Source: Clostridiales bacterium (GTDB taxonomy: Bacteria; Bacillota; Clostridia; Monoglobales; WRBX01). From it: a DNA stretch of 64,000 nt. The translations under genes and the position numbers were made by a program. Below are positions 7,829-41,662 of this stretch, piece after piece; within the stretch, counting starts at the first letter, position 1, and each line of letters opens with the position of its first letter. The notes under the pieces were generated by a model. That model searched no databases and was not told where the DNA came from. It saw only the letters and a list, made by a program, of their open reading frames with translations. The stretch is from the NCBI GenBank assembly GCA_031261985.1, contig JAISIR010000003.1:26924-90923 (forward strand), given 5' to 3'.

Positions 7829-7843
7829 CTTTTTTCCTAATTG

Positions 7844-8851
7844 TCAATCACCTTTTTCTTCCCCCAACCAATGCAACTCAGCCCCCGCGGTCCGCCTAGC
7901 TATATCCTCGCGCATATCATCCATACTAAACTCCGCCCCTTGCTTCAGCGCGCCCACATATATCTCAAACTTAAGGTTGTAATTTATCGCCTCGGCAACC
8001 GCACGCGCACGCATATATGCAGGGGAAGATTCTGCCCCATCAATCACATCCACCATCGGCACAAAAATTACTTTATCTAGATTTAATTCTTTAATCCCAT
8101 GTTCTGCCAATTCCATATGCTCGCGCCCAATTTGGTCGAATCTTCCCATTATAATACCAATCTTCTTTGGCTCTAATAAATCAGGACGTTTTTTCTTAGT
8201 AACCTCATAGCTCTCACGCGCTCGCCATTTATCAATTTCCTTATGATTCCCACTTAACAACACACTCTCTACCTCTGCCCCGCGCCAACATGCAGGGCGC
8301 GTATATTGTGGATATTCCAAAGCAGATGTGTAAAAACTCTCGTCCGTTTGCTCAGCAATCACGCCATCTACACACCTCGCCGTCGCATCGATAATTGCCA
8401 TGGCAGGAATCTCGCCACCAGTTAAAACAAAATCACCAAGCGAAAGCTCCAGCGGCTCAAGCGCATCAATCGCCCTCTGGTCTATCCCCTCGTAATGCCC
8501 ACAAATTAGGTTAATCTTAGGCTGTGTCGATAAAAATTCCGCCATCGATTGGTCAAACTTGCGCCCCTGAGGCGTCAGCAAAACATTCAACGCATTATCA
8601 TCGGGCGGCGACACACTTTCTACCGCGGCAACAATAGGCTCTGCCTGCATAACCAGCCCTGTGCCACCGCCAAACGTGTAATCATCTACCTTTTTATGCT
8701 TGTTATCTGCAAAATCTCGAATATTAATCAAATTTATATTTATAACTCCGCCCGATACCGCCCGCGCAATAATGCTATCCTGCAACGGCGCAAACATGTT
8801 AGAGAACAGCGTGAACACATTAAACTGTGTTGGCGTTTTTTTATTACCCAT
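7844..8851 (-). CDS. trmD: tRNA (guanine37-N1)-methyltransferase TrmD fused to a degenerate NadD-like N-terminal half domain
   Basis: TrmD motifs 'VFTLFSNMF', 'DDYTFGGGTGLVM', 'ICGHYEGIDQR', 'SLGDFVLTGGEIPAM'. The extra ~105 aa, 'KKIGIIMGRFDQIGREHMELAEHGIKELNLDKVIFVP', resembles the (T/H)xGH nucleotidyltransferase start of NadD. Start set at the ATG at 8851. Confidence 0.85.
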   Translation of the reverse strand: MGNKKTPTQFNVFTLFSNMFAPLQDSIIARAVSGGVININLINIRDFADNKHKKVDDYTFGGGTGLVMQAEPIVAAVESVSPPDDNALNVLLTPQGRKFDQSMAEFLSTQPKINLICGHYEGIDQRAIDALEPLELSLGDFVLTGGEIPAMAIIDATARCVDGVIAEQTDESFYTSALEYPQYTRPACWRGAEVESVLLSGNHKEIDKWRARESYEVTKKKRPDLLEPKKIGIIMGRFDQIGREHMELAEHGIKELNLDKVIFVPMVDVIDGAESSPAYMRARAVAEAINYNLKFEIYVGALKQGAEFSMDDMREDIARRTAGAELHWLGEEKGD

Positions 8852-23520: not shown

Positions 23521-24399
23521 ATGTCTTTAAACTCACTGCAAAATTTTTCTAAACCAAATAAACCAACAAGCGTTGCTGTTTCTAACGACGCAAGCAATTC
23601 TATTAAACGTCTGTCAAACTCTGTTAATTCTAGTAATCCCATTACAATTGGCGACAACTTAAAACAACGCGCACTTGCAAAAATTAATTCTGGCGAGGCG
23701 GGTAAACTTAAAGAGCTAGCTTACGACGAGGCAGAGCTTGTGTTTTTATTGGACGAAACAGGGTCTATAATTAATCAAGATGCCGACAATATTGCACAAG
23801 GCAGGCCAAGCGTTATCTTAGGTACAACAAAAGCTGTTAATTATGTGCTAGATAAAGAACGGCAAAATTCTAAAAACACATTAGTAACCATTGCTCAGTT
23901 TAGCGAGGATATGCGAACAGTTTGCGACCGCGCACATATCTCTAATGTTAAACCGTTTTCTTTTGAGCCAACAGGTGGAAACACTAGAATTTACGAAAAC
24001 TTATACAAAAAAATCAAACAAACAATGGCAATGCGCGCAAGCGAGCATCATGCTAATAACAATGTGTTGTTTGCAATAATGACCGACGGGCACGATTCAT
24101 ACTCTAGTTCTGCTCCGCAAGAATTACGCGACCTTATTAAAAAAAGTGGGTATAAATATATCCTGTTAGCAGAGGAAACACTAAATATTGCCTGGTTTGC
24201 TAACGATTTAGGCATAAATCAAAGCAACGCTGTTAGCTACTCTACCAAGGGTAAGTTTGGCGTTTCGGCAAACGGGCTTGCTATTTGCGCGGCAATCGAT
24301 GGTTTGCGCAAAACAGGCGATATACCTAAAAATTGGGCGCAAAATGTTATAGATAATAGAATCAACGACCCTTCTAAGCTACTAGGCAACAGGAAATAA
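23521..24399 (+). CDS. von Willebrand factor A (vWA) domain protein
   Basis: MIDAS elements 'LLDETGS', 'PTGGNT' and 'IMTDGHDS'. Confidence 0.65.
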   Translation: MSLNSLQNFSKPNKPTSVAVSNDASNSIKRLSNSVNSSNPITIGDNLKQRALAKINSGEAGKLKELAYDEAELVFLLDETGSIINQDADNIAQGRPSVILGTTKAVNYVLDKERQNSKNTLVTIAQFSEDMRTVCDRAHISNVKPFSFEPTGGNTRIYENLYKKIKQTMAMRASEHHANNNVLFAIMTDGHDSYSSSAPQELRDLIKKSGYKYILLAEETLNIAWFANDLGINQSNAVSYSTKGKFGVSANGLAICAAIDGLRKTGDIPKNWAQNVIDNRINDPSKLLGNRK

Positions 24400-24438
24400 T
24401 CGCAAAGCAAAGCATACACAAAAAAGGGGGGAGCCTTT

Positions 24439-26436
24439 TTGACACAGTGGCAACAAAGCTGGAAGGATTATTATAAAATATTAAATATAGCGCGAACCGC
24501 CGAGGCTAAAACTATCAAAAAGGCTTATCGTAAACTAGCCAAAAAGTATCACCCCGATATTAATCCTAACGATTCATCAGCCGAAGAAAACTTTAAACTT
24601 GTAAACGAAGCAAACGAATGCCTATCTAATGCAAGTTTAAAAAAAGAGTATGATGCTTCGTACGACGAATGGATACGTCTAGGCGAGCCAAAGCGTGAAG
24701 GCGATATCGGCAATTGGCAAGAGAATGTTAATAATTCTTACGCTGCCCCAAATAATGGCGATGCCGCAAACGCTCAAGCTAATTCATCTAGCCAATTCGA
24801 CGAGCAATTTTATGCAGAGGGCGAAGTATACCGTGAAGATATCCGCGCTTTTATAGATGAGTATTCTAAAGCATTCAATGATGCAATGGACGAAATCAAC
24901 CAAAAGTTAAACGATATAAACTACAACGATTATGAATCAGACTTTTTAGAACTAAGTAATTTTGCCGATGCTTTTGTTAAAAATTTGAAAGAGTATTTAG
25001 TGTATGCAAATCATTATGGCTTAGCAGAAGAAAAAACCGAGATAAACAATCTTATTAAAAAAACTAATCGGCGCACGTCAAAATTACAAACTAAAATTAG
25101 GCTGTTAAACACTACTCGTAAAATAGATGTTATGACACAAGAACTAAACGGAATTTTGTTCGATATGCCTAGCCTTTTAGAAGGAGTTTATACAGGAAAA
25201 GAAAATAACGAGAGCTATAGTAATAAGTATAATTTAATTTCGCAAAAGATGAAAGATTACCTTGCCGAACTAAACCCGCTTTTAGATATTCTCGACAAAG
25301 AAGGGTTCGTAAACGATTACCAAAAATTTGTTCGGCAAAAGGCAATTTTGCAGTTTCAGTTTAGAAGCATACCCAACTCTTTAGAGCATGCCTTAAAAGA
25401 CGTTAAAGTAGGCTCGCCGGGTGAAATGTATGGTCTAACGGTGTTTTGGGGTGCCAGCCACTCGTATATAAACGAGGATGCTAAAACTTATTATGGCATG
25501 CACTTTATAAAGAACTCTAATTTTAGAAGAAAGCACAATTTTATCAATTGTAGTTTTGATAGTAATTGCGACATAGCCGCTGGTTCAAACTTAACAAATT
25601 GCACTTTTGGCAGGTCGGTAAATATTAATTCCCATTTATATCCCGATGATGCACCCGACGAAGTTGACTTTGGCGAAGTAGTAAACAGCAGAATTATTAA
25701 TTGCAAATTTAGCAACGAAGCATTTATAGGCGGTTGCAATAAAGAGGGTCAAGGTATAACAGTTATTAATACTTCATTCGGAAGAGATTGCTCTTTAGGC
25801 GGCAACTCATTATTTACCGATTGTACTTTTGGCAGCAATTGCAAAGGCGGCTGGGGTGTCGATTACCCTATTTTTATAAACGGTGTTAAGTTCAAGAACC
25901 CTCCAACATCGGCGCATTCGTCTAGAAGTTCGGCTCAGCAAACGCAAAGCGGCAGTCAGCCGACGTTTAACACCTCGACCAGTTACGATTATAGCCCTTA
26001 TAACGACCCATACAACGATTTTTCTTACGGTTGGGAAGATATAGATGGCTGGCTACGATATACTAACTTTAAATCTAGCATTGTAGCACAAGCCGGGCAA
26101 AAGTTTTTATCTGGCGACCATACTATACAAATTGTAGAAGATGGAATACTAATTGACGGTGATGTGCCAAAGGTAAATGGAAAGCCTATAGATGTTTCGT
26201 TTTATGAACATCTAGACGGTAAAGAATACTTATGTTTTAAAAGAGAATGTATAGATTTTGCAGACAAAACTTTTTATTTTAACAACGAAAATGTTACGTA
26301 TAGAGATAAAACAAACGGCTTGATAATTTTTTTAGACCCATCGCCATATATATCTAATTCTTTTACACAAACAGCTCAGAACTCAGCTTCTAAGCCACAA
26401 AACAGCAACGCAAAATACGCAAGGAGGTTTATTTAA
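24439..26436 (+). CDS. J-domain (DnaJ-like) protein with a Cys/Asn-rich beta-helix-like repeat region
   Basis: 'DYYKILNIARTAEAKTIKKAYRKLAKKYHPDINP' (HPD motif). Later repeats 'NCSFDSNCDI / NCTFGRSVNI / NCKFSNEAFI / DCTFGSNCKG'. TTG start after AAGGGGGGAG. Confidence 0.7.
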   Translation: MTQWQQSWKDYYKILNIARTAEAKTIKKAYRKLAKKYHPDINPNDSSAEENFKLVNEANECLSNASLKKEYDASYDEWIRLGEPKREGDIGNWQENVNNSYAAPNNGDAANAQANSSSQFDEQFYAEGEVYREDIRAFIDEYSKAFNDAMDEINQKLNDINYNDYESDFLELSNFADAFVKNLKEYLVYANHYGLAEEKTEINNLIKKTNRRTSKLQTKIRLLNTTRKIDVMTQELNGILFDMPSLLEGVYTGKENNESYSNKYNLISQKMKDYLAELNPLLDILDKEGFVNDYQKFVRQKAILQFQFRSIPNSLEHALKDVKVGSPGEMYGLTVFWGASHSYINEDAKTYYGMHFIKNSNFRRKHNFINCSFDSNCDIAAGSNLTNCTFGRSVNINSHLYPDDAPDEVDFGEVVNSRIINCKFSNEAFIGGCNKEGQGITVINTSFGRDCSLGGNSLFTDCTFGSNCKGGWGVDYPIFINGVKFKNPPTSAHSSRSSAQQTQSGSQPTFNTSTSYDYSPYNDPYNDFSYGWEDIDGWLRYTNFKSSIVAQAGQKFLSGDHTIQIVEDGILIDGDVPKVNGKPIDVSFYEHLDGKEYLCFKRECIDFADKTFYFNNENVTYRDKTNGLIIFLDPSPYISNSFTQTAQNSASKPQNSNAKYARRFI

Positions 26437-27282
26437 ATGTTACCTTACAATAATCAAAACGAAAATTACGACCAAGACGGTGTTTCGCCTCAGGCAAGAT
26501 TAGCCGAGATGAATCGCAACCCATATAGCCGAGAATGGCGAATACCTAACGGGCCTCAACGTATAAAACCAATTAATAATCGAGTTTACAAGTTCTTTAT
26601 CGACGAGCATCAAGTTAGTGTAAGTAAAATGGACGAGAAAGACGGTATGGATGTTTTAATGGTACAAGTTGATGGTGCATCTTTACAAGTCTCGCGCTAT
26701 GATTTTAATTTCTTGTATTCATCTGATGGTTTTTTTGAAGTAAACCAAGAAGGTATTTTTACCACTCAAGACGATGTAACTTTTGAAAATGGCAATATAT
26801 ATTTTAATGGCAATTTAATTCGTCGCCCTACTAACCAAGTGACTAACGCTTATGGCAAGCCAACGGGCGACTGCCGAACGTATGCCGCCGACCGCCTTAG
26901 CGGCAAAATAGGCAAGCCAACCAACCCTAAAGAATGGTACCCAATAATCACTAGCGACATTACTAAAGAATATTGCCAAGTTGGCGAGGCAATTAATATT
27001 CTCGCACCGCTAATGAACCGAACAGTTGAACTTTTGCGTACCGAGGCAAAAGGCTTTAATGTTATTATCGACGATAAACTAGCAACGGTAAATGGCAAGC
27101 CAATAATGATTACATCTGGTGAAGGCGATGTTATATTTGGCAAAGATAAAGATGGAGATATCGCCATTAGCGGAATGACAGGTGATATCCTAAAAATCAA
27201 CGAGAATGCTACTCGAATTACCCTAAACGACGTTGCTGTTACTTGTAAAAACATGAATAACACTTTAAGCGCAACTAGGTAA
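26437..27282 (+). CDS. Hypothetical protein sharing a motif with the C-terminus of the J-domain protein
   Basis: The start abuts the stop of the upstream gene. 'VIIDDKLATVNGKPI' matches 'ILIDGDVPKVNGKPI' in the upstream protein. Confidence 0.5.
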   Translation: MLPYNNQNENYDQDGVSPQARLAEMNRNPYSREWRIPNGPQRIKPINNRVYKFFIDEHQVSVSKMDEKDGMDVLMVQVDGASLQVSRYDFNFLYSSDGFFEVNQEGIFTTQDDVTFENGNIYFNGNLIRRPTNQVTNAYGKPTGDCRTYAADRLSGKIGKPTNPKEWYPIITSDITKEYCQVGEAINILAPLMNRTVELLRTEAKGFNVIIDDKLATVNGKPIMITSGEGDVIFGKDKDGDIAISGMTGDILKINENATRITLNDVAVTCKNMNNTLSATR

Positions 27283-30517: not shown

Positions 30518-31213
30518 TTATCGCAATTTATTTATAAATTTTAACACATTTTGTTTTGCTGAGTTTTCAAAATTATCGACAATTCTCTCATTTTGTCTTT
30601 GAGCACTTGATTTAAATATTTTTTTCCTAGATGAGTTTTGTAACCGTTCTTTGGTGCGTTGTGCCATTTCCATTTCCTCTTTAGCTGCTGATATAAATTC
30701 TTCTGGGTTTTGCAAATAGTTTCTGCACTCTTTGATAAAAGCAACTTTCTCTTTTACTCTAACCACGTCATAAGAATCATGAGCTAAGCGAAAGTCATCA
30801 AATATTTTTGCAATTTCGTTTAGAATAGATACAGTCTTGTCGTTCGTTTCAGCATTCTTAACGAATCCTAACACTTTTTGTTTCTCAGAGTTTTCAAAAT
30901 TATTGACAATTCTCTCGTTTTGTCTTTGAGCACTTGATTTAAATATTTTTTTCCTAGATGAGTTTTCTAACCGTTCTTTGGTGCGTTGTGCCATTTCCAT
31001 TTCTTCTTTAGCTTTTGATATAAATTCTTCTGGGTTTTGCAAATATTCGCTACATTCTTTGACAAAATCAAGTATCCCATTTACATCATCGGCGCGATAA
31101 TAATCACTTCCTGCTATCATCATATTACCACAATATGTATAATCACACGTTGGATTGAGGCCATTAAATCTTTGTATTATTTCATTTAGAATAAATACAG
31201 CCTTATCGTCCAT
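30518..31213 (-). CDS. Protein with an internal ~107-aa tandem duplication, unknown function
   Basis: Start moved to the ATG at 31213, because the ORF-track N-terminus runs through the TTGACT-17-TATAAT promoter. Two near-identical units 'YLQNPEEFISxAKEEMEMAQRTKERLxNSSRKKIFKSSAQRQNERIV'. Confidence 0.55.
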   Translation of the reverse strand: MDDKAVFILNEIIQRFNGLNPTCDYTYCGNMMIAGSDYYRADDVNGILDFVKECSEYLQNPEEFISKAKEEMEMAQRTKERLENSSRKKIFKSSAQRQNERIVNNFENSEKQKVLGFVKNAETNDKTVSILNEIAKIFDDFRLAHDSYDVVRVKEKVAFIKECRNYLQNPEEFISAAKEEMEMAQRTKERLQNSSRKKIFKSSAQRQNERIVDNFENSAKQNVLKFINKLR

Positions 31214-31593
31214 TAGTATCATCCCCTTACTTATATTATAACAGATTTTCGCGTAAAAGTCAAGCAAAAAGATATGAATTATGTTAAATTTGTGTAAAGG
31301 TATTAAGGTAAAAAGTGCACCCCCGGTTCAAATCTGTTTTTAGGCTCTAAGTAACCCCCTAAACACTACAAATAAAAAAATGAAGAATGATAAGTGATGA
31401 ACGATAAATGTTGAATACAAAAAGTGCACTATAGCATGCCTTTCATTCATCATTTACAATTGATCATTTTTCATTGCCAAGCTTGCTTGGCACTTTTTGT
31501 TTGGTTTGGACAAAAAAGATACCCAAGAAGGTTTATAAGCAACTTTCAAAGTTTTATCAATTTTTTAATTCTTTTTTGTAGCTTGTTGGCAAT

Positions 31594-31872
31594 TTAATAG
31601 CCTCTTTCCCGATAAGAGCCATAAGGATTTTTCTTTCTCAATTCTTCGATATATTTTAATTGTGCTTTTTCTAAATCTTCTTTTTCCATTTTCTCAGTTG
31701 CCTTTTTGAAATAAGTTTCCCCTGCTTCATTATATTTTTGTGCTTTTTTTGCACTTTTGCGAGCAGATATGGCACTGCATAATGACCATATAGCACTTCC
31801 AACGGCGATATAAATAGTAATTATATCTCCTACTGTTATGTTTTCTTTCATAAATGTCATAAAACTTTCCAT
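31594..31872 (-). CDS. Small single-pass membrane protein (92 aa), island cassette A
   Basis: Start at ATG 31872, 7 nt after the AAGAGGTG of the conserved module. One TM helix 'ITIYIAVGSAIWSLCSAI' followed by a charged tail. Confidence 0.5.
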   Translation of the reverse strand: MESFMTFMKENITVGDIITIYIAVGSAIWSLCSAISARKSAKKAQKYNEAGETYFKKATEKMEKEDLEKAQLKYIEELRKKNPYGSYRERGY

Positions 31873-31877
31873 ATTAC

Positions 31878-31923
31878 TCACCTCTTACATAATTATATAT
31901 ATTTCGTCATACAAAGTCAATAC
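31878..31923 (-). promoter_or_regulatory. Conserved island promoter+RBS module, copy 1
   Basis: Minus strand reads TTGACTTTGTATGACGAAATATATATAATTATGTAAGAGGTGA (-35, 17 nt, -10, RBS). Confidence 0.75.
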
Positions 31924-32203
31924 TCAAAATGCCCCCCGTTCAAATCTGTTTTTAGGGGTGGAGAGGAACAGTGAAGTATTTTGGTTGCACCAAAAAGTGA
32001 AGCAGTTGGCTTTCAGCCAACAGTGAAGTATAGCGTGAACGCTAAATGAAGTAAAGTTTGCATAAAAATTACGAAGCAACTTCATTCGCCGATAGGCGAA
32101 CTTCACTTCGCAAGATACTTCACTTGCCCGACAGGGCAAACTTAGTTGCAATTTGCTATGCAAATTGCATGTCCCATTTGGACAAAAAAGATACCCGAGA
32201 GAT

Positions 32204-32329
32204 TTATGTTATCACGCCATGCGTCTGTTTAATTATAGTTCTATATCCTTTAACAACCCAAATCTCGCAATTCTTAGTAAAAGAAAAACTCTGTGCATAT
32301 CGAAAAATATTGCTTTTATTATTTTTCAT
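32204..32329 (-). pseudogene. 41-codon ORF behind a degenerate copy of the island module; possible decayed cassette
   Basis: MKNNKSNIFRYAQSFSFTKNCEIWVVKGYRTIIKQTHGVIT. RBS is GGAAGGGTG. The stop abuts the same GATACCCGAGAGAT junction that follows gene 37066-38616. Confidence 0.25.
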
Positions 32330-32496
32330 CACCCTTCCAAAATTATATTTAAATCGGTTTGTGAAGAAATTATAAATTTTCGTGTTTTATAATATAGCGT
32401 TCTGTTGACTTTTACATTATTATGTGCTAAAATAATAAAAAGATGTTGTCGTCATAATCGAATATTATTAAAAGTTTGATGAAGTGGAGGGCTATT

Positions 32497-33042
32497 GTGG
32501 CTAAAAGAGAGGCTATTAAAACAACACTTAATTCAATTGTGGAATATTGGGGCTCGAGGGTTGATGAATGTGATCTTAGTGTTGACTGGGCAGAAGCGGA
32601 CAGCCATTGTTGGAGGTGTGGGTGCGAAAAAAATTTAGAACGGTGTCATATAATCCCGCATTCATTACAGGGAAAGGATGAGCCTTCTAATTATGTGTTA
32701 CTATGCAAAAGATGTCATTTGGAAAATCCTAATGTCGCCGATAAGGAAATTATGTGGGATTGGCTAAAAGCATATAAAACATCTTTTTATGAAACTTTTT
32801 GGCTAATTCAAGGTTTAGAAGAATACAAACGCATATATGGAAAAAGCGTTGTTGAGGAACTCAAAAAGCTAGGAATTAAAGATAGAAATAAAGTTTTAAG
32901 CTCGTTCAAAGCTACCCATAATATGGCAAGCTTTCATTTCGGGCAACCATATTTCAACTCAGCAACTGTTGCAGGATTATTGAGGATGATGATAAAGGAA
33001 TTGGAAGCGGAAACGGAAACTATTGAGAAATGCAACGCATAA
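32497..33042 (+). CDS. Free-standing HNH endonuclease
   Basis: GTG start 6 nt after GGAGG. 'CWRCGCEKNLERCHIIPHSLQGKDEPSNYVLLCKRCH' is an HNH motif. Confidence 0.7.
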   Translation: MAKREAIKTTLNSIVEYWGSRVDECDLSVDWAEADSHCWRCGCEKNLERCHIIPHSLQGKDEPSNYVLLCKRCHLENPNVADKEIMWDWLKAYKTSFYETFWLIQGLEEYKRIYGKSVVEELKKLGIKDRNKVLSSFKATHNMASFHFGQPYFNSATVAGLLRMMIKELEAETETIEKCNA

Positions 33043-33097
33043 AATTCTCATAAATTAATTTGTTCTATTTATATCAGCTCGTTTATTTTTAAAAACA

Positions 33098-33910
33098 TTA
33101 TTGTTGAATAGCTTTAGTCAAGCCATGCATCCCAGCTTCAAAATCTTCTCTAAAATCAATATACTTTTTATTCTTTAATAAATGTGGGATTTCACAATCT
33201 TTTAGCAAAATAGGTATAACCTTGATTCTGTTTTCACCTATTTCACGCCAAAACATAGACTGCCATTCCGTTTTAACCCAGTTAGATTCAATAGAATTCG
33301 GAGATAGGATAACCAATATATAGTCGCTGGCATCAAGAGCTTTTGATATTTCATCGGGTATAGATTGCCCGCCACATATCTCACTATCTATCCAAGGGTC
33401 ATGCCCATCTTCTGCCAATTGAACAAATAAACTTTCTGCAAATGGCTTATCTTTTGTTGCGTGAGAGATGAAAATTTTCAAGCCTTTTTTATTGCCAAAC
33501 CTAGTTTTAACATGTCGCTCATACATTAAAGCTATAGTAAGATTAAGTTCCAATAATAAGTCTTCTTTTTGTTGCATTAATTCCTTTTCATCGCCCTCGC
33601 CAGACATAATTTTTTCGGTAATCCCCCAAATTTCATATTCTATAGATTTCATTCTATTTGAGCAAGCAGACATAGGAATAGTGTTTGTTATATTACCTTT
33701 TGGTACATAAGCAAATGTATTGCAATGCAATATATTTCCCCAATAGATAATCGCATATTGATTATGCAACATTTCACAATCTTCATCAATGCCATCTGTA
33801 CATAATTCACAAATGTCACATTCGCAAGCATCATCGTCAAAAATTCCAATTCTCCCTTTATACTCTCCTTTTATACATAAAACTGGACCATAGCTTAATT
33901 CAGAATGCAT
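33098..33910 (-). CDS. TIR-domain protein with a Cys/Asp-rich N-terminal domain
   Basis: C-terminal 'LKIFISHATKDKPFAESL...DPWIDSEICGGQSI...YILVILSPNSIESNWVKTEW' is TIR-like. The N-terminal ~130 aa contains 'DDDACECDICELCTDGIDEDCE'. Confidence 0.75.
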   Translation of the reverse strand: MHSELSYGPVLCIKGEYKGRIGIFDDDACECDICELCTDGIDEDCEMLHNQYAIIYWGNILHCNTFAYVPKGNITNTIPMSACSNRMKSIEYEIWGITEKIMSGEGDEKELMQQKEDLLLELNLTIALMYERHVKTRFGNKKGLKIFISHATKDKPFAESLFVQLAEDGHDPWIDSEICGGQSIPDEISKALDASDYILVILSPNSIESNWVKTEWQSMFWREIGENRIKVIPILLKDCEIPHLLKNKKYIDFREDFEAGMHGLTKAIQQ

Positions 33911-33948
33911 GTATTATCCTCTCTTTCGATGAGAATTATTTTAAAAAC

Positions 33949-34857
33949 TTAAACACATATTTTCGCACCTTTTTTTCTATTACATCTCCAACACAAACAT
34001 TGAAGGTTTTCCTCTACAGATAAACCACCTTTAGAAATTGGAATTATGTGGTCTATTTCTAGAAGTAGTGTGGGTTCATCTTTTATAGAAACATTACATA
34101 ACTTGCAAGCATAGTTATCTCTTTTTTTAATTTTTTCTCTTAATTGTGGAGTCATTATAACTCTTTGGTATTGAGCAGATTTTTTATATTTGATACTGTC
34201 GTCTAGCCAATGCATAAAACCCTCTAAATTATTGGGGTTGAGCTTTAAAGTGTAAGACAATCCACTATTGCCACCTGAACTTGTATAAGAGAAAACATAT
34301 TGCGGATAAATAACTGAAACTAAATCTAATTCAGTTAATCCTAACTTTTTATAAAGAGATTTTTTCAAAATTTTAATCAAAAATGGTAAATTGTTTTTAA
34401 TCTTATCAAATAAATTATTACGTTTTGTCCTAAGTAGTTCTCTCGATTCTTCATAAGAATTAAAATTATTCAGCATGTCGTTTGCATAATTACGATGCGT
34501 TTCATCTATAGGTATATTAAAATACTTACAAATATACTTATAGCCATTTAGCTGAGCATTACTAACAACAGAACGAGAACAATGATATATGTATTGTTTG
34601 TTTTCTCTACTAAAAAGCCCAGAATGTTTATAACCCCATCGGCTTTCATTTGAGATTTCTCCAACAAAAGTTTGCTTAGTTTGGCCTCCTAAAAGATTTA
34701 TGCTTAAAAAATCGGCATACTCATTCAGCTCGTTAAAATCGTTAGTTAAATCCTCTACACTTTTCTTTATGGAAGCAAATTCATCAGAATTAAAATAAAC
34801 ATTTCTATAAATGATAATACCTATCCAAACTATAAAAATTATTGCTAAAGGATTCAT
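33949..34857 (-). CDS. Membrane-anchored HNH nuclease
   Basis: N-terminal TM 'LAIIFIVWIGIIIY' and C-terminal 'CKLCNVS...LEIDHIIPISKGGLSVEENLQCLCWRCNRKKG'. Confidence 0.7.
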   Translation of the reverse strand: MNPLAIIFIVWIGIIIYRNVYFNSDEFASIKKSVEDLTNDFNELNEYADFLSINLLGGQTKQTFVGEISNESRWGYKHSGLFSRENKQYIYHCSRSVVSNAQLNGYKYICKYFNIPIDETHRNYANDMLNNFNSYEESRELLRTKRNNLFDKIKNNLPFLIKILKKSLYKKLGLTELDLVSVIYPQYVFSYTSSGGNSGLSYTLKLNPNNLEGFMHWLDDSIKYKKSAQYQRVIMTPQLREKIKKRDNYACKLCNVSIKDEPTLLLEIDHIIPISKGGLSVEENLQCLCWRCNRKKGAKICV

Positions 34858-34936
34858 GGTATTCCGCCTTTATGTTTTTGTATTTTACCGCTTAGAAATT
34901 ATAGTGAAATGAAAAATCTCAGGAGTTTTTTCATGC

Positions 34937-35521
34937 CTATTGTAATTTAAATCCATTTTGTTTGTCTGCTAATTTTGCGATTTCGGTTCTTTGAAGTTTT
35001 ATTTCTTTAAGAAATTTTTCTTCAAAAGTTTCAATAGTATGAAAATGAGCGTAATTCATTAAATTAATATGAAAATTTTGTTCTTTAATATCATCGTTGA
35101 TATCTTTATAATAAACAACTCCAGAAGCAGGTTCTTTCCTTGCGTTTCTTCTGATCTTTGTTGTACCAATAGGAACCTCATATGTTTGACCTATACCAAT
35201 TATACATTCCATGGTTTTTAATTCCTTAAGAATTCTAATTATATCGTTTTCCATGAGACTATTGATAAAGTTATCATCAAATACAATTTTTACATTTTTA
35301 GCTATTTTTCTTCCGTTATTTGTAAATTTTAACATGTAAAAAGCTCGATTCACAAAAACGACTTCTACGGTGATATAAGCCCGATTTTCTTCGTCAAATT
35401 GGCGCTTTATTTCTATAGTTTGTTCTTTAGTAGCTTTAGTGGATTTATAATTAAAAAAGCATATAAAAATTGTAGCTACTGTATAAATAAAAGTTATAAT
35501 AACATTAAGCCAATCTGCCAT
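34937..35521 (-). CDS. Single-pass membrane protein, first gene of the TIR operon
   Basis: Start at ATG 35521 after GGAAGAGGTGG. TM helix 'WLNVIITFIYTVATIFICFF'. The rest is unrecognised. Confidence 0.5.
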   Translation of the reverse strand: MADWLNVIITFIYTVATIFICFFNYKSTKATKEQTIEIKRQFDEENRAYITVEVVFVNRAFYMLKFTNNGRKIAKNVKIVFDDNFINSLMENDIIRILKELKTMECIIGIGQTYEVPIGTTKIRRNARKEPASGVVYYKDINDDIKEQNFHINLMNYAHFHTIETFEEKFLKEIKLQRTEIAKLADKQNGFKLQ

Positions 35522-35526
35522 ATCTC

Positions 35527-35570
35527 CACCTCTTCCATAATTATACATTATTCGCACTTTGATGTCAAGC
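35527..35570 (-). promoter_or_regulatory. Conserved island promoter+RBS module, copy 2 (more diverged)
   Basis: Minus strand reads TTGACATCAAAGTGCGAATAATGTATAATTATGGAAGAGGTGG. Confidence 0.7.
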
Positions 35571-35834
35571 CTCAGCTAAAATCCGCATTCAGCCTATAAC
35601 CAACTCTTAAACGCTATTTTTAAACTGCATCTTAAAAAACAAAAAAACCTGCGAGGCAGGCGTTAGAAATATATTTTTAATGGATAATGAAAAGTGGGGA
35701 AATATTAAAAACGTCGTTTAATAATTCGAAACAGCGTATTATCGCAGTTTTTGCTAAATAATCTTCCCTGTTTTCTTCTAAGGATGGCTTTATCTCACTT
35801 GGTAAAAGATATGAGAAATTTATACTTTCCCCAA

Positions 35835-36836
35835 CTAATATGGATTTTCAAGATCTAATCCATAATGATTTCCAATGCATCTATAGATACCTTCAACGGC
35901 ATTGCAAATATCTGATATATAGCTTGATATAATTTCATCTGTTATATCGATATTAATTTCAGCAGCGTGGACTATCGCATTTCTAATAGTAATTATATCA
36001 TCAATACTATCTAATAATGTATCGGAACGGGCAGGAATGGGTTTTGAAAATACAGCGTTTATATCAAGATTTTCGTTCACCATTTTATAATTGTCTATAA
36101 TAGATTTAGGTCTTTGAAAACTTAACCATTCGCTCAAAACCCATTCTACTTTTTCATTATCTTGCGAAAATGTTTCTATGTGTTGTGGAAGAATTTTTAT
36201 TTTATTTATTACTTTTTTAAATGCTTTTTTCCTGTCATCCGCAAATTTCAAAAGTACAACGAAAGTGGATTTAAGATATTTTTCCCAAGCACCAACAATA
36301 TAAGGTATAAGTAGATTGTTAAATATGGTATTTGCATTAAATTCCATAAGCCAAGGAATATTTGTATTATTACCTTCTATTCTAGTCTGATATTCGAGCA
36401 AAGCCACCTTTTTAATATTATTATCGAAAATCCACTTTTGATAGTACAACCCAACTTCTATTTCAGATTTCTCTGGTAATTCTACTCCGAGCTTAAGGTC
36501 GTCCCAATCATCTTCTTCAAATTCACCACCAAAAAAATTGCTTAAAGCTATTACGGTTTCGTGTTGATGCTTATGCTCCCAATAACTACGCCCAATACGC
36601 GTTCGCGTACAAACCGATATAACTCCATTTTCCTCGTAAAGAGTCAATTCAAGTCCAACAAGTGATTGGAATTCTTTTGCTCCAACCCACACATAACTCC
36701 CTTTGCGTTGCGGAATTTCTTCCTTAGGCACGATTTCAAAGCCATCGTATATCTCATAGTCAAGCCATTTAATAACATCTTTTACTCTTTCAATGTTTGT
36801 TCCAATAGGAAAGGTATTAGTGGTTTCATAACTCAT
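35835..36836 (-). CDS. HEPN-motif protein (ApeA/Abi-like), island cassette C
   Basis: Start moved to ATG 36836; the ORF-track N-terminus crosses the promoter module and spacer repeats. C-terminal 'IITIRNAIVHAAE' contains an Rx4H motif. Confidence 0.55.
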   Translation of the reverse strand: MSYETTNTFPIGTNIERVKDVIKWLDYEIYDGFEIVPKEEIPQRKGSYVWVGAKEFQSLVGLELTLYEENGVISVCTRTRIGRSYWEHKHQHETVIALSNFFGGEFEEDDWDDLKLGVELPEKSEIEVGLYYQKWIFDNNIKKVALLEYQTRIEGNNTNIPWLMEFNANTIFNNLLIPYIVGAWEKYLKSTFVVLLKFADDRKKAFKKVINKIKILPQHIETFSQDNEKVEWVLSEWLSFQRPKSIIDNYKMVNENLDINAVFSKPIPARSDTLLDSIDDIITIRNAIVHAAEINIDITDEIISSYISDICNAVEGIYRCIGNHYGLDLENPY

Positions 36837-36841
36837 GCTTT

Positions 36842-36887
36842 TCACCTCTTTCATAATTATATATAATTCGTCATGCGAAGTCAATAC
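36842..36887 (-). promoter_or_regulatory. Conserved island promoter+RBS module, copy 3
   Basis: Minus strand reads TTGACTTCGCATGACGAATTATATATAATTATGAAAGAGGTGA. Confidence 0.75.
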
Positions 36888-37006
36888 AAAAAAATGCGCC
36901 CCCAGTTTAAATCTGTTTTTTGGGGGTGGGCAACCCCCTAAAGCGCCCTTGCAAAAATTTGCACTTAGAAATGCGAAAAACGCCCATAAATACAGGCGTT
37001 TTTGGC

Positions 37007-37058
37007 TGGGTATCTTTTTTGTCCAAACAACTTGTCCTGTTTGGACAAAAAAGATACC
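37007..37058. terminator. Perfect 21-bp-stem palindrome between cassettes (bidirectional terminator/insulator candidate)
   Basis: GGGTATCTTTTTTGTCCAAAC, 10 nt, GTTTGGACAAAAAAGATACCC. Half copies at 31511-31531 and 32175-32197. Confidence 0.7.
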
Positions 37059-37065
37059 CGAGAGA

Positions 37066-38616
37066 TTAAGACTCTTCGTCATCGTCAACTTCATCGAAAA
37101 TGATATTAGAATTCCCTATTAAATAATCGACGCCTTCTAATCTTTCTTTCCATTTTTGTTTATTTTCTTCGCATAATTCATCATATAACACATCGACAGC
37201 ATCAGATAAATACTCACATCCATTTTTATTATCAAATATTTCGCTTATATAAGTCCCAATATTCGCACGGTCAAAATCTAATTCTTGAAAAACATTTAAA
37301 AATTCATGTTCAGGGTGTTTTTGCCCATATTTTAACAGCCAAAAGATAAGTTCTTTTTTCGATTGTTTTATTTGTAAAAATATATTATATAGTTTTTTGG
37401 ATTTTTCGCCTCTAAATACAAGACAAGCTGTTGATTCGCTTTCTAATTCGTATGCGTAAATATTAAGTTCTGAACACAAACTATACACTAGATTATAATA
37501 CGAAAAAGCTATTTTGCCCAAAGCAGTACCAAAAGCTTTTTTAATATTCTCAGAATATTCTTCTTTATTCCCACCACCTATTTTTTCTAATAATTTAAGT
37601 TCTTTGTTTATATCATCCTGTGTGCTAAATCTGGAATATCGTGCGTCATTATAGAATTGCAGCAATACGTCAAACAGGATGTTTTCATTATCCTTAAAAT
37701 CATTTTCTGCTATTTTATTTATATAATCACGAAGTCCTGTGTGATTGTGACTCATAAGCAGTCTTCTTATTCGATCTTGCTCGCTTCTTAAATCTTTGTT
37801 TTTATAATACATTAGCTCAATTATTATTTTTTGTAATCTTTCTACTCCTTGAGCTGCGAAATACAAAGCCAAAAATGGATACTCGCATAGGTATTCTTTG
37901 TTTTGAAACAAACTTTTATCATCGGGATGGAAAAATTTAATTTTACTTATCTCTTCTATTGATTTCCAAATCATTGCTCCAGAAATTTGCAACTCCTTTC
38001 TTAAAGCAAAATTCATTTCCGATAGATCTCTATCTAAATCAACTTCTATTTTTTCATCAAAATGTTCATTTTCTTCATGAGTGTAACTACCAATACTAAT
38101 TGCATAACTTAATTTTTTTGTTGCTTCTTCAAAAACAAAATTTTCTTCTTCACCGTCGCATTCATTGTGGAAAGCTGTTATTAAGTTTTCTTTTACAGAA
38201 CAAAGAGGTATCAAATTCTTCCAAAACTGTTTCCTTTCATCTTTAGACAACATATCAACCCTTGCCATTCCTTTGTAAGCAACTAGTTTTTTATTCAAAA
38301 TGTCGTCAATTACTTTCGCTGCTTTTTCTGAAATATTTTGCAACACCCAGCAAAAAGGCCAGCCTTTTAATCCGCCCCAAGATATCGGTTGAAAATCAAT
38401 GGTGCATAAATCGTCTTTAATGAGAAATGGCGATAAGTCTCCAAATACACGCCTATCAAGAATATCACCTGCTCTTATAACTATTTCATCTGAACAATTT
38501 TTCAATTCTTCAACACTCATAATTACTTCAAAAACTTCTTCGCCATACCAACCAGTGTTGAATTTTCCACTATCAAAAATAAAAGCAATATTAAGTTGTT
38601 CATTTATATTTCCCAT
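37066..38616 (-). CDS. Large Abi-like protein with a candidate Rx4H HEPN motif, island cassette D
   Basis: ATG at 38616 after GGAAGAGGTG. Central 'RIRRLLMSHNHTG' contains RLLMSH. Otherwise unrecognised. Confidence 0.45.
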   Translation of the reverse strand: MGNINEQLNIAFIFDSGKFNTGWYGEEVFEVIMSVEELKNCSDEIVIRAGDILDRRVFGDLSPFLIKDDLCTIDFQPISWGGLKGWPFCWVLQNISEKAAKVIDDILNKKLVAYKGMARVDMLSKDERKQFWKNLIPLCSVKENLITAFHNECDGEEENFVFEEATKKLSYAISIGSYTHEENEHFDEKIEVDLDRDLSEMNFALRKELQISGAMIWKSIEEISKIKFFHPDDKSLFQNKEYLCEYPFLALYFAAQGVERLQKIIIELMYYKNKDLRSEQDRIRRLLMSHNHTGLRDYINKIAENDFKDNENILFDVLLQFYNDARYSRFSTQDDINKELKLLEKIGGGNKEEYSENIKKAFGTALGKIAFSYYNLVYSLCSELNIYAYELESESTACLVFRGEKSKKLYNIFLQIKQSKKELIFWLLKYGQKHPEHEFLNVFQELDFDRANIGTYISEIFDNKNGCEYLSDAVDVLYDELCEENKQKWKERLEGVDYLIGNSNIIFDEVDDDEES

Positions 38617-38622
38617 TGATTT

Positions 38623-38668
38623 TCACCTCTTCCATAATTATATATAATTCGTCATACAAAGTCAATAC
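38623..38668 (-). promoter_or_regulatory. Conserved island promoter+RBS module, copy 4
   Basis: Minus strand reads TTGACTTTGTATGACGAATTATATATAATTATGGAAGAGGTGA. Confidence 0.75.
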
Positions 38669-39872
38669 AAATTATCGTGATTTTGGTATAATACACCGCA
38701 TTTTATCCCAAGCTTTCATTATGAGTAAATACACTAACGAACAAAAAGAAAAAGCGTTGGAACTTTATGCTTCTGGGGTAAGTGTTGCGAGCGTTGTTAA
38801 GGAATGCAAAATCCCGCGAAGCACGGTGTATGGGTGGATTTCAGCCGAAAATCTAAACGGCAATGACGAGCTTGCGTTCACTCCGAAAAACTTTCGCATG
38901 CTTAAAACAAAGGCGGACAAGTTGGAGCAGATTGTCGCTGTGCTTAAATCGTCTGATTGCACCCTTAACGCTCCATTACACGAAAAACTTAAAGTTATCA
39001 AAAAGCTGTATGGGCAATATAGTGTGCATATTTTATGCGAGGCGTTCTCAGTTAGCCGTGGGACTTTCTATAATTATCTACTACGCAACAAAAACGAAAA
39101 CACCACTTATGCAAAGCGGCGTGAGGTTTTTAGCAAACTCGTTAAAGATGTTCACGATGAGTTTAATCAGATTTTGGGTGCAAAGAAAATCACGGCGGTA
39201 CTAAATGAGCTAGGGCACAGGACGACTGAGAAATATGTGCGAAGCATTATGCAGGATATGGGGCTTGCGAGCATTCGGCAGGGGGCAAAAGCATTTTACC
39301 ACAAGGAACAATCAAAGGCAAAAAATCATCTAAATCAAAATTTCAAGGTGGACACCCCTAACGAGGTTTGGGTTAGCGATGTTAGTTTCTTCCATTTGCA
39401 CAAGCACACATATTACATTTGCGTGATTATCGACCTTTTCGCTCGAAAAGTTGTGAGTCATAAAGTGTCGCACAAAAACAGCACACAACTTACAAAATCA
39501 ACTTTTAAGCAAGCGTATTTAACACGAAAGCCCAAAGATGGTTTGATTTTCCATACCGATCAAGGCTCAAATTATCGCTCATTCACTTTTATGAGCTATC
39601 TAAAAGAGTTAGGCGTTACGCAATCGTTTTCGAGGGCTCATATTCCTTACGATAATTCTGTTGCGGAGGCGTTCTTTTCGTCTTTGAAGCAAGAAGATCT
39701 TTATCGCCATAAGTTCAAAACCGAAAAAGATTTCCGCAAAGCCGTCGATGAATATATTGTTTTTTATAACACCAAACGCCCACATACTTATAACAAGAAT
39801 AAAACGCCTGTTAAGGTGGAGGATGAGTTTTATAGCAATAATGAGAAGAATTCACAATAACAATATAGATGT
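38669..39872 (+). mobile_element. IS3-family insertion sequence (ends approximate)
   Basis: Contains the transposase ORF and fills exactly the gap between the copy-4 module and the stop of gene 39873-41279. Terminal inverted repeats are only weakly visible. Confidence 0.55.
38721..39860 (+). CDS. IS3-family transposase (HTH + DDE/rve), single uninterrupted ORF
   Basis: HTH region 'IPRSTVYGWI'. rve core 'VWVSDVSFF...YICVIIDLFARKVV...HTDQGSNYRS...YDNSVAEAFFSSLKQE'. Start set at ATG 38721. Confidence 0.8.
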   Translation: MSKYTNEQKEKALELYASGVSVASVVKECKIPRSTVYGWISAENLNGNDELAFTPKNFRMLKTKADKLEQIVAVLKSSDCTLNAPLHEKLKVIKKLYGQYSVHILCEAFSVSRGTFYNYLLRNKNENTTYAKRREVFSKLVKDVHDEFNQILGAKKITAVLNELGHRTTEKYVRSIMQDMGLASIRQGAKAFYHKEQSKAKNHLNQNFKVDTPNEVWVSDVSFFHLHKHTYYICVIIDLFARKVVSHKVSHKNSTQLTKSTFKQAYLTRKPKDGLIFHTDQGSNYRSFTFMSYLKELGVTQSFSRAHIPYDNSVAEAFFSSLKQEDLYRHKFKTEKDFRKAVDEYIVFYNTKRPHTYNKNKTPVKVEDEFYSNNEKNSQ

Positions 39873-41279
39873 CTATTTAGGTTTTTTCTTACTGTCTTTA
39901 TTGGTTTTGAATCTATTTTTATAATTAAAATAGAACATAAGTAATTCTTCTGGTGGCAGCTCGTTAATTTGTAAGGTTCTAGCGAAACTTCTCATTTGCC
40001 GCAGTAAAGCTTGTTCCGAAGGCGGAGAGTTTCTGTATTCTTCTTTTGAAAGTTCGTATTCCATTGCTTCATAAATACATTTTGCAGTAACAGGCGGAAC
40101 CCCCTGACTTTGCTTTAATGCAGTGTTATGCCAATTGCGGCAATACTTTACCCAAACATCATTTACATTTTTTATTTCAACTAAATTGTTAAACTTTTCT
40201 AACATATCAGGCAATTTCATATTTTTAGGATTAGTGCAATAATAAACAACTTTTTCCAAATTGCCGTTTTCTAAACTTTTACAAATGCAATCAAATATGT
40301 GAGAGTCGTTTTGGGGATTCACACCTATTATAAAAAGTGCACCTTCTATATTTTCAAACTCTGAAAAATGGTAATCAGACCAACCTTGCAATTCTGGATG
40401 CTCAATTGCTATATTTGGAGTTAATTGCAAGTAATGTTCGTCTGGAAATATTGTTTTATACAAGTCGACTATTCCTCTTTTGAGATTTTCCTGTTGGGTT
40501 CCAGTGCCACCCTTTAACTTATTATAATAATTATTAGCATTTTGAAAATCTTTAGCAAATGTATATTTTTTATTCCCTGAATAGCTTAATAAGGCATTGC
40601 AAAAACAATGTTCGAAATTTAGTGGTATATAAATCGAAGCCCCATCTTGTCGTCTTGCAAAGCCAGGAATAGTATGAGGATTTTCGCTATCTGGCAAAAC
40701 AGAATAGTCTCCATGCAAGTGATAAACAGGGACTTCCGTAATTTTTTCAATATTATTATCATAATTAAGTGTGAATATTTGTTCAAATTGTTTGAAAAAT
40801 TTCTTAGCTGTCATCATCGTTTTATATGTTTCTTGTAATCTGCCGTCACAATATATCGCATCTAAAATCATGCGTTCAACACCTTGAAGTGTAGCTCGCT
40901 TTTGAGAAATAACATCTGGGTTATCAATATAGAAAAACTCAAAAACTAAAAGCCAATCTTCTATCCCAATTTGGTCTGGCTTAGAAATTGGTTCATTATA
41001 TGTTTTTTTAAACTCAGTTAAAGCACTTTTTAAATTTTTTGGTACTTTTTCATCATATTTACCATTTATCGCATTGTTAATTAGAGGAACAAAGTTGTTA
41101 AATATATTCACTATGCCATCGCCTTCAATAGCCGCCTCTGAAGTTTCGTCTGCTTTGAATAAATCATTATATAAATTTTGCTTAGCTTTTGCAATCATAC
41201 GGATAAAAATCCATTTTGAAAGAAAATCCTTACCACCAAACTCAATATTAATGCCATTGCCTACTAATAAATTCTTCAT
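39873..41279 (-). CDS. AbiH-like / SIR2-like abortive-infection candidate, island cassette E
   Basis: Start at ATG 41279 after GGAAGAGGTG. N-terminal 'LLVGNGINIEFGG' resembles the AbiH 'IIGNGFDLAHG' start, and there is an 'YHLHGDY' motif. Confidence 0.4.
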   Translation of the reverse strand: MKNLLVGNGINIEFGGKDFLSKWIFIRMIAKAKQNLYNDLFKADETSEAAIEGDGIVNIFNNFVPLINNAINGKYDEKVPKNLKSALTEFKKTYNEPISKPDQIGIEDWLLVFEFFYIDNPDVISQKRATLQGVERMILDAIYCDGRLQETYKTMMTAKKFFKQFEQIFTLNYDNNIEKITEVPVYHLHGDYSVLPDSENPHTIPGFARRQDGASIYIPLNFEHCFCNALLSYSGNKKYTFAKDFQNANNYYNKLKGGTGTQQENLKRGIVDLYKTIFPDEHYLQLTPNIAIEHPELQGWSDYHFSEFENIEGALFIIGVNPQNDSHIFDCICKSLENGNLEKVVYYCTNPKNMKLPDMLEKFNNLVEIKNVNDVWVKYCRNWHNTALKQSQGVPPVTAKCIYEAMEYELSKEEYRNSPPSEQALLRQMRSFARTLQINELPPEELLMFYFNYKNRFKTNKDSKKKPK

Positions 41280-41284
41280 TTCAA

Positions 41285-41329
41285 TCACCTCTTCCATAAT
41301 TATATATAATTCGACTTATAAAGTCAATC
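41285..41329 (-). promoter_or_regulatory. Conserved island promoter+RBS module, copy 5
   Basis: Minus strand reads TTGACTTTATAAGTCGAATTATATATAATTATGGAAGAGGTGA. Confidence 0.75.
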
Positions 41330-41588
41330 TCATAAAAACAAAACTTCGCAAAAGGGGTAAGCGAATTTTTACGGTAATAATCATCGGATTTCTAAAATCT
41401 ATTTCAGACATTTGTGTTCAAAAGTAAACTTTTTTGCGATTTAGTTCCAAAATTTTCACTGTTTTGTATAAGTGTCCGAAAGTTGTTTATAACACGGAAA
41501 GATTAAACCCCTCATTAATTCAAGCGAAAATAAAAATAGCGACTGCACTTTTGGACACGGGGGTTCAAAAGTGAGCCACTAATTCACT

Positions 41589-41662
<74 letters not shown>

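Follow-up and report, generated by a model that had tools for sequence, protein, structure and literature searches.

A low-GC array of defence-type genes beside tRNA-Cys in a Clostridiales genome, with a repeated promoter and ribosome-binding-site module in the linkers between its units

Defence islands turn over fast, and the entry and exit of single genes, as well as their immediate expression, are mostly explained by mobile elements and integrons. A gene array in the genome of a Clostridiales bacterium raises the question of whether a repeated non-coding linker could do similar work. The array lies in a 64,000-nucleotide (nt) stretch of a metagenome-assembled genome (MAG; GCA_031261985.1, contig JAISIR010000003.1 of 106,855 bp), hereafter the window, whose positions are used throughout. 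Five minus-strand units of the array (genes G1, G2, G3 and G5, and a three-gene operon) open with copies of one promoter and ribosome-binding-site (RBS) module, here called P. We interpret the locus as a low-GC accessory island of defence-type genes beside a tRNA-Cys gene, built of self-contained expression units whose linkers arose by duplication and recombination and could guide the gain, loss and swapping of genes. To this reading as a whole we give an even chance; its parts differ in strength and are graded below.

Module P is 43-46 nt long and consists of TTGACT, a 17-nt spacer and TATAAT, followed by AAGAGGTGA. The 43-mer TTGACTTTGTATGACGAATTATATATAATTATGGAAGAGGTGA was used as the query (an example 31-mer of the module is TTTGTATTGACTTTGTATGACGAATTATATA), with dinucleotide-preserving shuffles as the null. 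It has four minus-strand matches with at most three mismatches, compared to 0.00 expected from the shuffles. The copies are as follows.

31878-31923, minus strand: P copy 1 (43-mer match 31878-31920, 2 mismatches), predicted to drive G5
35526-35570, minus strand: P copy 2 (promoter match 12/12), predicted to drive the transmembrane (TM)-HNH-TIR operon
36842-36887, minus strand: P copy 3 (43-mer match 36842-36884, 3 mismatches), predicted to drive G3
38623-38671, minus strand: P copy 4, the reference (43-mer match 38623-38665, 0 mismatches), predicted to drive G2
41285-41329, minus strand: P copy 5 (43-mer match 41285-41327, 3 mismatches; promoter match 11/12), predicted to drive G1

Copy 2 is a mosaic, with a 3' half like that of copies 4 and 5 and a diverged 5' half. 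The 3' core of the module, TATAATTATGGAAGAGGTG, is matched exactly here too (35527-35545), giving five sites against 0.01 expected. The initial annotation, made by reading the sequence, had described five near-identical minus-strand modules and a degenerate sixth. The five were recovered to within a few bases, with 0-3 mismatches or, at 35527, half diverged, and the sixth lies at 32322-32376 (64% identical). No further copies were found in the 64 kb by a scan allowing 30% substitutions.

Copies 1, 3, 4 and 5 are 88-96% identical over 44-52 nt, and all five copies have the hexamers TTGACT or TTGACA and TATAAT, separated by 17 nt (11-12 of 12 positions matched). For comparison, we collected the 19 sites of the window with at least 11/12 hexamer matches and a 17-nt spacer, five of which are P and 14 of which are other promoters. 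Outside the hexamers, the P copies share 0.55-0.83 identity with one another, but on average only 0.27 (maximum 0.45) with the 14 others. Positions with no function are also kept among the copies, for example TTGTATGACGAATTATA in the spacer and TATGG between the -10 box and the Shine-Dalgarno (SD) sequence. Because identity outside the hexamers far exceeds that with the other promoters, common descent is the only reasonable reading. Judged on their sequence, the P copies are homologous and not mere consensus promoters.

We predict that P is an active promoter. The copies are without the TGn extended -10 motif that most other strong promoters of the window carry. The SD begins about 8 nt past the -10 box, which implies a leader of about 15 nt if the inferred start site is correct. 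On the 3' side, homology stops 0-3 nt past GAGGTGA, 4-6 nt before the ATG. The 5' limit varies, falling at the -35 box in copy 5 and about 45 nt further out, through the spacer element X described below, in copies 1 and 3, while copy 4 is cut on this side by an insertion sequence (IS). All copies are co-oriented and run up to a start codon. In copies 3, 4 and 5, the -10 box is overlapped by a perfect 14-bp palindrome, AATTATATATAATT, which is broken in copies 1 and 2. The palindrome also creates a weaker plus-strand promoter-like match (TTTTCA-17-TATAAT) at 36839 and 38620. Two other identities for P were considered and rejected. The TATATA centre is what a dif/Xer site would have, but P lacks the conserved XerD arm TTATGTnAAnT. 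Nor does P read as the 5' end of a tRNA pseudogene that runs on into X, for it has no likeness to the 5' half of tRNA-Cys, and ARAGORN reports nothing there.

The sequences between the units are themselves built of repeated pieces. The initial annotation proposed that the spacers reuse two elements, X and Y, and pairwise comparison of all spacers agrees, with homology that starts and stops at start and stop codons. The elements of the spacers are listed here.

31319-31346: X copy 1, followed by element Z and a different promoter (31235-31263)
31931-31958: X copy 2, immediately upstream of P copy 1
36889-36942 (match at 36898): X copy 3, immediately upstream of P copy 3
37008-37059: full copy of Y, a perfect palindrome with 22-bp arms and an 8-nt centre, 7 nt past the G2 stop codon
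32177-32202, minus strand: half copy of Y with the TCTCTC junction (0 mismatches over 26 nt)
31505-31530, minus strand: half copy of Y (one arm)
36976-37003: bidirectional intrinsic-terminator-like hairpin AAAAACGCC...GGCGTTTTT, from repeat search and RNA folding
31975-32148: variable core of spacer IGf, with a Gut-1-like motif and mirrored plus-strand hairpin units
32204-32376, minus strand: mini-unit, apparently decayed, of the degenerate P and an open reading frame (ORF) of 42 amino acids (aa), ending at the same stop/Y junction as G2

Element X is a C5...G5 sequence that contains CAGATTTAAAC and is followed by a T run. Its three copies stand as first described; the hairpin attributed to it is not a stable one, since the folds (z-scores -0.4 to +1.0) are no better than those of shuffles. 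X was rejected as an intrinsic terminator on the same grounds. Copy 5 of P has a different short hairpin, and a terminator lies about 80 nt upstream of copy 2. X also matches 16-17 of 18 nt in the T-arm region of the neighbouring tRNA-Cys gene (four matches in the window, 0.03 expected). All three copies are inverted relative to this gene and resemble its T-arm and 3' part. The outermost X (31319-31352) and the 3' part of tRNA-Cys (41586-41619) form 34-nt inverted repeats, 76% complementary, that bracket the 10.2-kb array. This inversion is the opposite of what tRNA integration would leave.

The full palindrome and two half copies of Y are as the initial annotation had them, with arms of 22 bp. 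Together with the adjacent terminator, Y folds at -52.7 kcal/mol (z = -11.4). It has no U tract, and only one arm is left at two of the three sites, which lie 7, 8 and 69 nt past stop codons. The junction TAA + TCTCTCGGGTATCTTTTTTGTCCAAA follows the stops at 32204 and 37066, where a common junction had been noted; the 26 nt past the stop are identical in both.

Put together, spacer IGc consists of Y, a terminator, X and P; IGf of Y, a hairpin, the Gut-1-like pair, X and P; and IGg of Y, a hairpin, X, Z and another promoter. The three spacers agree at their ends and differ in the middle. The blocks of homology break off at functional borders: for P, these are the -35 box or X on the 5' side and a point just past GAGGTGA on the 3' side, while the homology of Y begins at the stop codon. 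Such mosaic linkers argue for repeated recombination between similar linkers and not for a discrete transposable element. By the sequence evidence, the P copies and the X and Y spacer pieces are related by descent, through duplication and recombination, and not by convergence. The unit made of the degenerate P, the 42-aa ORF and Y looks like a decayed cassette, and would be a sign of turnover.

The middle of IGf contains a Gut-1-like RNA motif (RF01706; 32074-32148, minus strand), scoring 49.5 bits against a gathering score of 50 (E 2e-8). It comprises three hairpins, each followed by GUGAAR, and is mirrored on the plus strand (31975-32058) by three hairpin+GTGAAGT units; z-scores of the folds are -4.2 for the minus-strand unit and -0.47 for the mirrored one. 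Gut-1 was previously found only in human-gut metagenomes and has no known function (PMC2864571). One contig of an independent Logan assembly, L091, ends inside this block (at 32120), which suggests further copies in the sample.

A third element, Z, behaves differently from P. Z is CTTAACACAAATTTAACATAA, two TTAACA repeats 11 bp apart, placed 5-20 nt upstream of a -35 box. Six copies occur in the window (6947, 16954, 27828, 28650, 31279 and 50534), some of them far outside the island; the one at 50534 has four phased repeats. Three promoters just left of the array have Z in common, and the exact 21-mer also occurs in two IMG/VR contigs. Z looks like a general UP-like or activator site of the lineage. 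The initial annotation allowed that P itself might be a generic strong promoter; within the 64 kb it is not, whereas Z is window-wide.

The genes behind the modules are given below, together with the IS that interrupts the array and a convergent gene that has its own promoter.

39873-41282, minus strand: G1, 469 aa, AbiH/SIR2-like family (PADLOC PDC-S21, 4e-9)
38672-39860, plus strand: IS3-family insertion sequence with a 380-aa transposase ORF (38718-39860), between the G1 stop codon and P copy 4
37066-38616, minus strand: G2, 516 aa, unannotated two-domain family (257 representatives at E<=1e-3 in 1.84 billion proteins)
35835-36836, minus strand: G3, 333 aa, HEPN protein of the RiboL-PSP type (Pfam PF18735, 6.6e-11)
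33098-35521, minus strand: TM-HNH-TIR operon of three genes (Pfam; PADLOC PDC-S66, 5e-19)
34937-35521, minus strand: 194-aa TM protein of the operon
33949-34857, minus strand: 302-aa HNH protein of the operon (Pfam HNH, 2e-12)
33098-33910, minus strand: 270-aa TIR protein of the operon (Pfam TIR_2, 3e-30)
32476-33042, plus strand: convergent 188-aa HNH gene (Pfam HNH_5/HNH) with its own, unrelated promoter at 32405-32433
31594-31872, minus strand: G5, 92-aa predicted membrane protein without a family

The cargo proteins have no pairwise similarity in an all-against-all BLASTP search or in hhalign of G2 against G3, in line with the earlier statement that they are unrelated. The assignments of an AbiH/SIR2-like protein and a TIR operon are also supported (PDC-S21 at 4e-9; TIR_2 at 3e-30). 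Two proteins had been called by a shared Rx4H motif; of these, G3 is a HEPN protein, while G2 was not confirmed as one. The family of G1 has 341 homologues at no more than 44% identity, one of them named AbiH by NCBI, and some members have weak SIR2 or DUF4917 matches. At one homologue locus (L095), the gene is the last of a four-gene operon without a repeated promoter.

G2 has no match in Pfam, NCBIfam, PADLOC or PHROG. Its AlphaFold2 model has a predicted local distance difference test (pLDDT) score of 88, and no match to it was found in PDB or BFVD at E<=0.001. The protein has an N-terminal alpha/beta domain of about 190 aa and an all-helical C-terminal domain of about 310 aa, the latter also found alone. 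Residues E208, Y252, G257, E259, R260, K263, H290, Y322, R326, Y327, E390 and E422 are invariant in the family. We regard G2 as a candidate new defence protein.

Clustered here are TIR, two HNH, HEPN RiboL-PSP and AbiH/SIR2-like genes, with the PADLOC candidates PDC-S66 and PDC-S21. This content supports a defence-like role for the cargo. No complete named defence system is matched by the island cargo, and no regulator gene was identified in domain scans of the island ORFs. Also lacking are tyrosine or serine recombinases among the island ORFs scanned (about 22.7-41.3 kb), where the IS3 DDE transposase is the only recombinase.

The window is chromosomal, as it carries dnaA (13318), RNase Y (rny), cysS, a PatB-type lyase and nifS. 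A Tn916/CD1110-type conjugative element begins near 50 kb. The array, at 31.3-41.5 kb, forms the right part of a low-GC tract (about 27-42 kb) that ends at the tRNA gene, which is followed by tRNA-Gly and tRNA-Met.

41589-41662, minus strand: tRNA-Cys (GCA; ARAGORN, Rfam 63.7 bits), the right-hand boundary of the island

The GC content of the cargo is 27-34% (38% for the plus-strand HNH gene), compared to 37-44% for dnaA, rny, cysS, nifS and virB4. Both the IS3 at a junction (NCBIfam transpos_IS3, 2.6e-90, with rve and HTH domains) and the tRNA-Cys at the end of the array (ARAGORN) had been recognized initially and hold. The ends of the IS are inferred from imperfect inverted repeats, TTATYGTGAWTT.

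The array is unlikely to be a mis-assembly of the MAG, because independent Logan contigs of run SRR14710920 match its junctions at 100% identity (copies 2, 3, 4 and 5 and the IS). The contigs are L091 (37034-32120), L092 (41590-38642) and L001 (38671-37005). L092 and L001 overlap by exactly k-1 = 30 nt (38642-38671) at the 5' edge of P copy 4, which is the IS boundary and the sole Logan break within the array that is unexplained by a palindrome. The contig runs unbroken through IS3 and its other boundary. An overlap of this length implies a second sequence context in the sample for the 30-mer TTTGTATTGACTTTGTATGACGAATTATAT, which could be a genomic copy elsewhere or a variant arrangement. No further copy of this context was found by scanning the 64-kb window.

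Some additional features of the surroundings were recorded. A comparable Logan break occurs 29 nt downstream of tRNA-Cys, where L092 begins (41590). Just downstream of this gene, a direct repeat, ACTTTTGAAC-N6-GTCYRAAA, is present at 41402-41425 and 41549-41572, 147 nt apart; the first ACTTTTGAAC copy belongs to a hairpin with an 8-bp stem, CACTTTTG...CAAAAGTG. The repeat may be an old attachment or processing site. To the left of the array, a 231-aa gene (30518-31213) contains an internal 327-nt tandem duplication (30528-30779 and 30855-31106; 252 nt at 86% identity), resulting in two copies of a domain of about 109 aa. An operon-like trio left of the island (23521-27282, plus strand) encodes a VWA-domain protein, a 665-aa J-domain (DnaJ N-terminal) protein and a 281-aa protein without a family.

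The closest parallel to the array comes from the promoter-early stem-loop (PeSL) cassettes of T4-like phages (Arbiol et al. 2010; Comeau et al. 2014). A PeSL follows an upstream stop codon and consists of a stem-loop (often polyG/polyC), a consensus sigma-70 promoter, an SD and a start codon (PMC2839356). PeSLs are concentrated in hyperplastic regions upstream of ORFans, and have been shown to mediate deletions, insertions, replacements and mini-circles by homologous recombination (PMC2839356; PMC4122927). Like the linkers of the array, they are intergenic composites of about 50-100 nt that reach from the upstream stop to the downstream start codon, and they place a sigma-70-type promoter, an SD and a G/C-tract stem-loop, which is only putative in the array, before unrelated accessory ORFs. 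In both cases the linkers offer homology for deletion, insertion and replacement. There are also differences. The array is located in a bacterial chromosome, without phage genes or a match to phage DNA, and so has no hyperplastic T4-like context. Its cargo consists of full-size defence-type genes and an operon, and not of small ORFans. There are five to six copies instead of about 50, with the stem-loop X weak and in two of five. Moreover, the array is known from one genome only.

A related design was identified in a phage contig, L094 (IMGVR_UViG_3300028832_000471; 1-8700, minus strand). It has at least 12 intergenic modules of 60-100 nt between small ORFs, each composed of TTAACA-type repeats, a CGGGCCGGCCCG GC-hairpin, TTGACTT-17-TATACT and an RBS. 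The contig encodes, among others, a phage sigma factor, a deoxyribonucleotidase and an exonuclease. Its sequence suggests an early region of the PeSL type, in a phage without obvious kinship to the T4-like group. If so, the PeSL-like design is also used outside T4-like phages. Positions 2050-2330 of a second contig, L093, were listed with these modules. Clusters of CACTTTACC and GGTAAAGTG repeats and the phage sigma factor gene adjoin the L094 modules.

Other known systems share parts of the arrangement. Putative mobile promoters are highly similar sequences upstream of non-paralogous genes in one genome, as found here; they were defined in the -150 to -50 interval by at least 80% identity over at least 50 nt, and are mostly scattered pairs (Matus-Garcia, Nijveen & van Passel 2012; PMC3575422). 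P copies 3 and 4 (94% identity over 52 nt) reach that threshold, and other pairs extend over 44-46 nt. The P repeat, in contrast, extends from -50 to -5 and takes in the -10 box as well as the SD, and its copies are clustered and co-oriented, with shared 3' elements. Integrons, too, hold co-oriented, unrelated accessory genes with repeated junction sequences. The likeness to an integron raised initially nevertheless fails on every defining feature tested (IntI, attC and a common Pc). No IntI, attC or attI is present, each unit has its own promoter instead of one Pc, and the repeats are promoter plus RBS. Apart from the promoter, no repeat is common to all units, as Y follows only three ORFs and X precedes only three promoters.

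The array shares its diverse anti-phage-type genes beside a tRNA gene, its low GC content and its IS with the defence hotspots carried by P2/P4-like elements and with chromosomal defence islands (Rousset et al. 2022, PMC9122126). In the hotspots, the frame is one of conserved flanking mobile-element genes, whereas that of the array is an internally repeated non-coding linker. Phage morons are likewise autonomous promoter-gene-terminator units; they normally lack one common promoter sequence, and no prophage is located at the array. Nor does the locus look like a tRNA-integrated island, since there is no integrase and the three tRNA-Cys-like X fragments are inverted. The varying 5' limits of P, without flanking inverted or direct repeats, do not fit a miniature inverted-repeat transposable element (MITE) or Correia-like element.

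We propose that the array works as PeSL cassettes have been demonstrated to work in T4-like phages. Each unit opens with a compact, near-consensus predicted sigma-A promoter and a strong SD within about 8 nt of the -10 box, and most units are bordered before or after by hairpin or terminator elements (Y, X or ordinary terminators). Linkers of this kind would hand a newly placed gene ready-made, insulated expression. They would also act as homology patches of 45-90 nt, between which general recombination could delete, duplicate or swap genes. Cargo exchange itself is inferred, by analogy with the phage cassettes. That exchange is ongoing is plausible on the same analogy but unproven.

Several considerations weigh against this proposal. 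The P copies differ by 4-12% (copy 2 by about 23%), and from this it follows that the duplication is at least partly old. Selection on function or shared regulation may be a larger cause of the conservation of P than ongoing exchange is. X is not thermodynamically notable and is present at only two of five P copies; thus, the terminator component of a PeSL is weak here or replaced by other hairpins. The confinement of P to the island was judged on 64 kb of genome. The lineage is without relatives in public data that could reveal gain, loss or swapping. The nearest CysS is 62% identical among 5.8 billion proteins, and the best among 185,579 GTDB species genomes is 47% identical. The six cargo and neighbour proteins that the protein collection contains each form a singleton cluster at 90% identity; four others are absent from it under the tested start. 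P was absent from all collections searched (GTDB representatives, IMG/VR, JGI metagenomes and INPHARED).

The individual searches give the same picture. A degenerate pattern for P, ATNTATAATTATGNAAGAGGTG, has no matches in the 185,579 GTDB species genomes or in IMG/VR. Its eight matches in JGI metagenomes are all due to chance, without upstream similarity and in several cases inside genes. Looser and stricter P patterns recovered nothing homologous from IMG/VR, where X and Y have no matches either, and the whole array has no blastn match among INPHARED phages. Six-frame translations of P, X and Y searched against the 5.8 billion proteins hit only the extended G3 of the MAG itself, in a search that is insensitive and covers cluster representatives only. 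Exact-protein look-ups returned the same strain from run SRR14710920 or nothing, and synteny through CysS revealed no related locus (best genome matches 47% identical). The host lineage is effectively alone in public data, represented by a lone MAG.

Some of these observations would also follow from shared regulation, with P carrying a common operator through which one repressor or activator controls all the defence genes at once, the duplications being old and the array static. A dimeric repressor could sit on the 14-bp palindrome over the -10 box in copies 3, 4 and 5; the missing TGn motif sets P apart as a distinct promoter class; and Z behaves as a common promoter-associated site in the same genome. 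Conservation, however, spans the full 43-52 nt, including the 5' spacer and the leader and thus more than the palindrome, which is broken in copies 1 and 2. The island encodes no regulator, and regulation leaves unexplained why Y and X are reused and why the spacers are mosaic. We consider this explanation unlikely, and note that it is compatible with the recombination reading. Decidedly less probable is a remnant of a prophage or satellite early region, with P as phage early promoters and the genes as leftover morons. Repeated promoter and RBS sequences are typical of phage early regions (the PeSLs and contig L094), the island is low in GC and adjoins a tRNA gene, and Z occurs in two IMG/VR contigs; phage genes were not found in the island.

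Two further explanations invoke dedicated recombination or transposition. X and Y could be recombination sites for an enzyme encoded elsewhere, acting on cassettes in the integron or pdif manner. The match of X to the tRNA-Cys T-arm is suggestive, as tRNA 3' halves are classic integrase targets, and the outermost X and tRNA-Cys are inverted repeats around the whole array. Y, moreover, is a full palindrome at one site and a half site with an intact arm at two, resembling products of cleavage in the core, and its 22-bp arms and 8-nt centre are like a recombinase core site. Yet tyrosine and serine recombinases are missing from the island ORFs scanned (about 22.7-41.3 kb), each of X and Y borders just three units, at inconstant positions relative to the ORFs, X has the orientation opposite to a tRNA-integration product, and both elements are absent from IMG/VR. 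We regard a site-specific origin as very improbable. That P is a small mobile element (a MITE or IS fragment) with an outward promoter, comparable to Correia elements in Neisseria, appears more improbable still. Promoter-bearing repeats of this size are known (PMC3575422), and IS3 directly abuts P copy 4. Against this, the P copies have no terminal inverted repeats or target-site duplications, their 5' homology limit differs, all point in the same direction and end at the start codon, and IS3 and P share no sequence. IS3 looks to be single-copy, because the Logan contig is not broken by it.

Returning to the recombination reading, the broadest claim that could be drawn from the locus is that immune genes on a bacterial chromosome are exchanged without a recombinase, with phage-style promoter/terminator linkers as the scaffold. 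We advance this claim only tentatively and think it rather unlikely. Site-specific exchange at the tRNA-Cys-like X and the palindromic Y could be a further layer of such a scaffold. If the claim is true, a gene between two linkers could be looped out, duplicated or replaced by homologous recombination, and an arriving gene would at once have a strong, insulated promoter with its RBS. Besides integrons and mobile-element hotspots, there would then be a third mode of organising a shuffling defence repertoire. For practical use, the 46-nt module P is predicted to be a compact natural promoter and RBS part for Clostridia, and genome searches for repeated promoters could flag unannotated defence genes such as G2. 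If one non-coding linker gave a gene its expression signals as well as homology for recombination, this would explain simply and generally how single defence genes enter, leave and are expressed immediately, and would tie chromosomal immune loci to the PeSL mechanism of phages.

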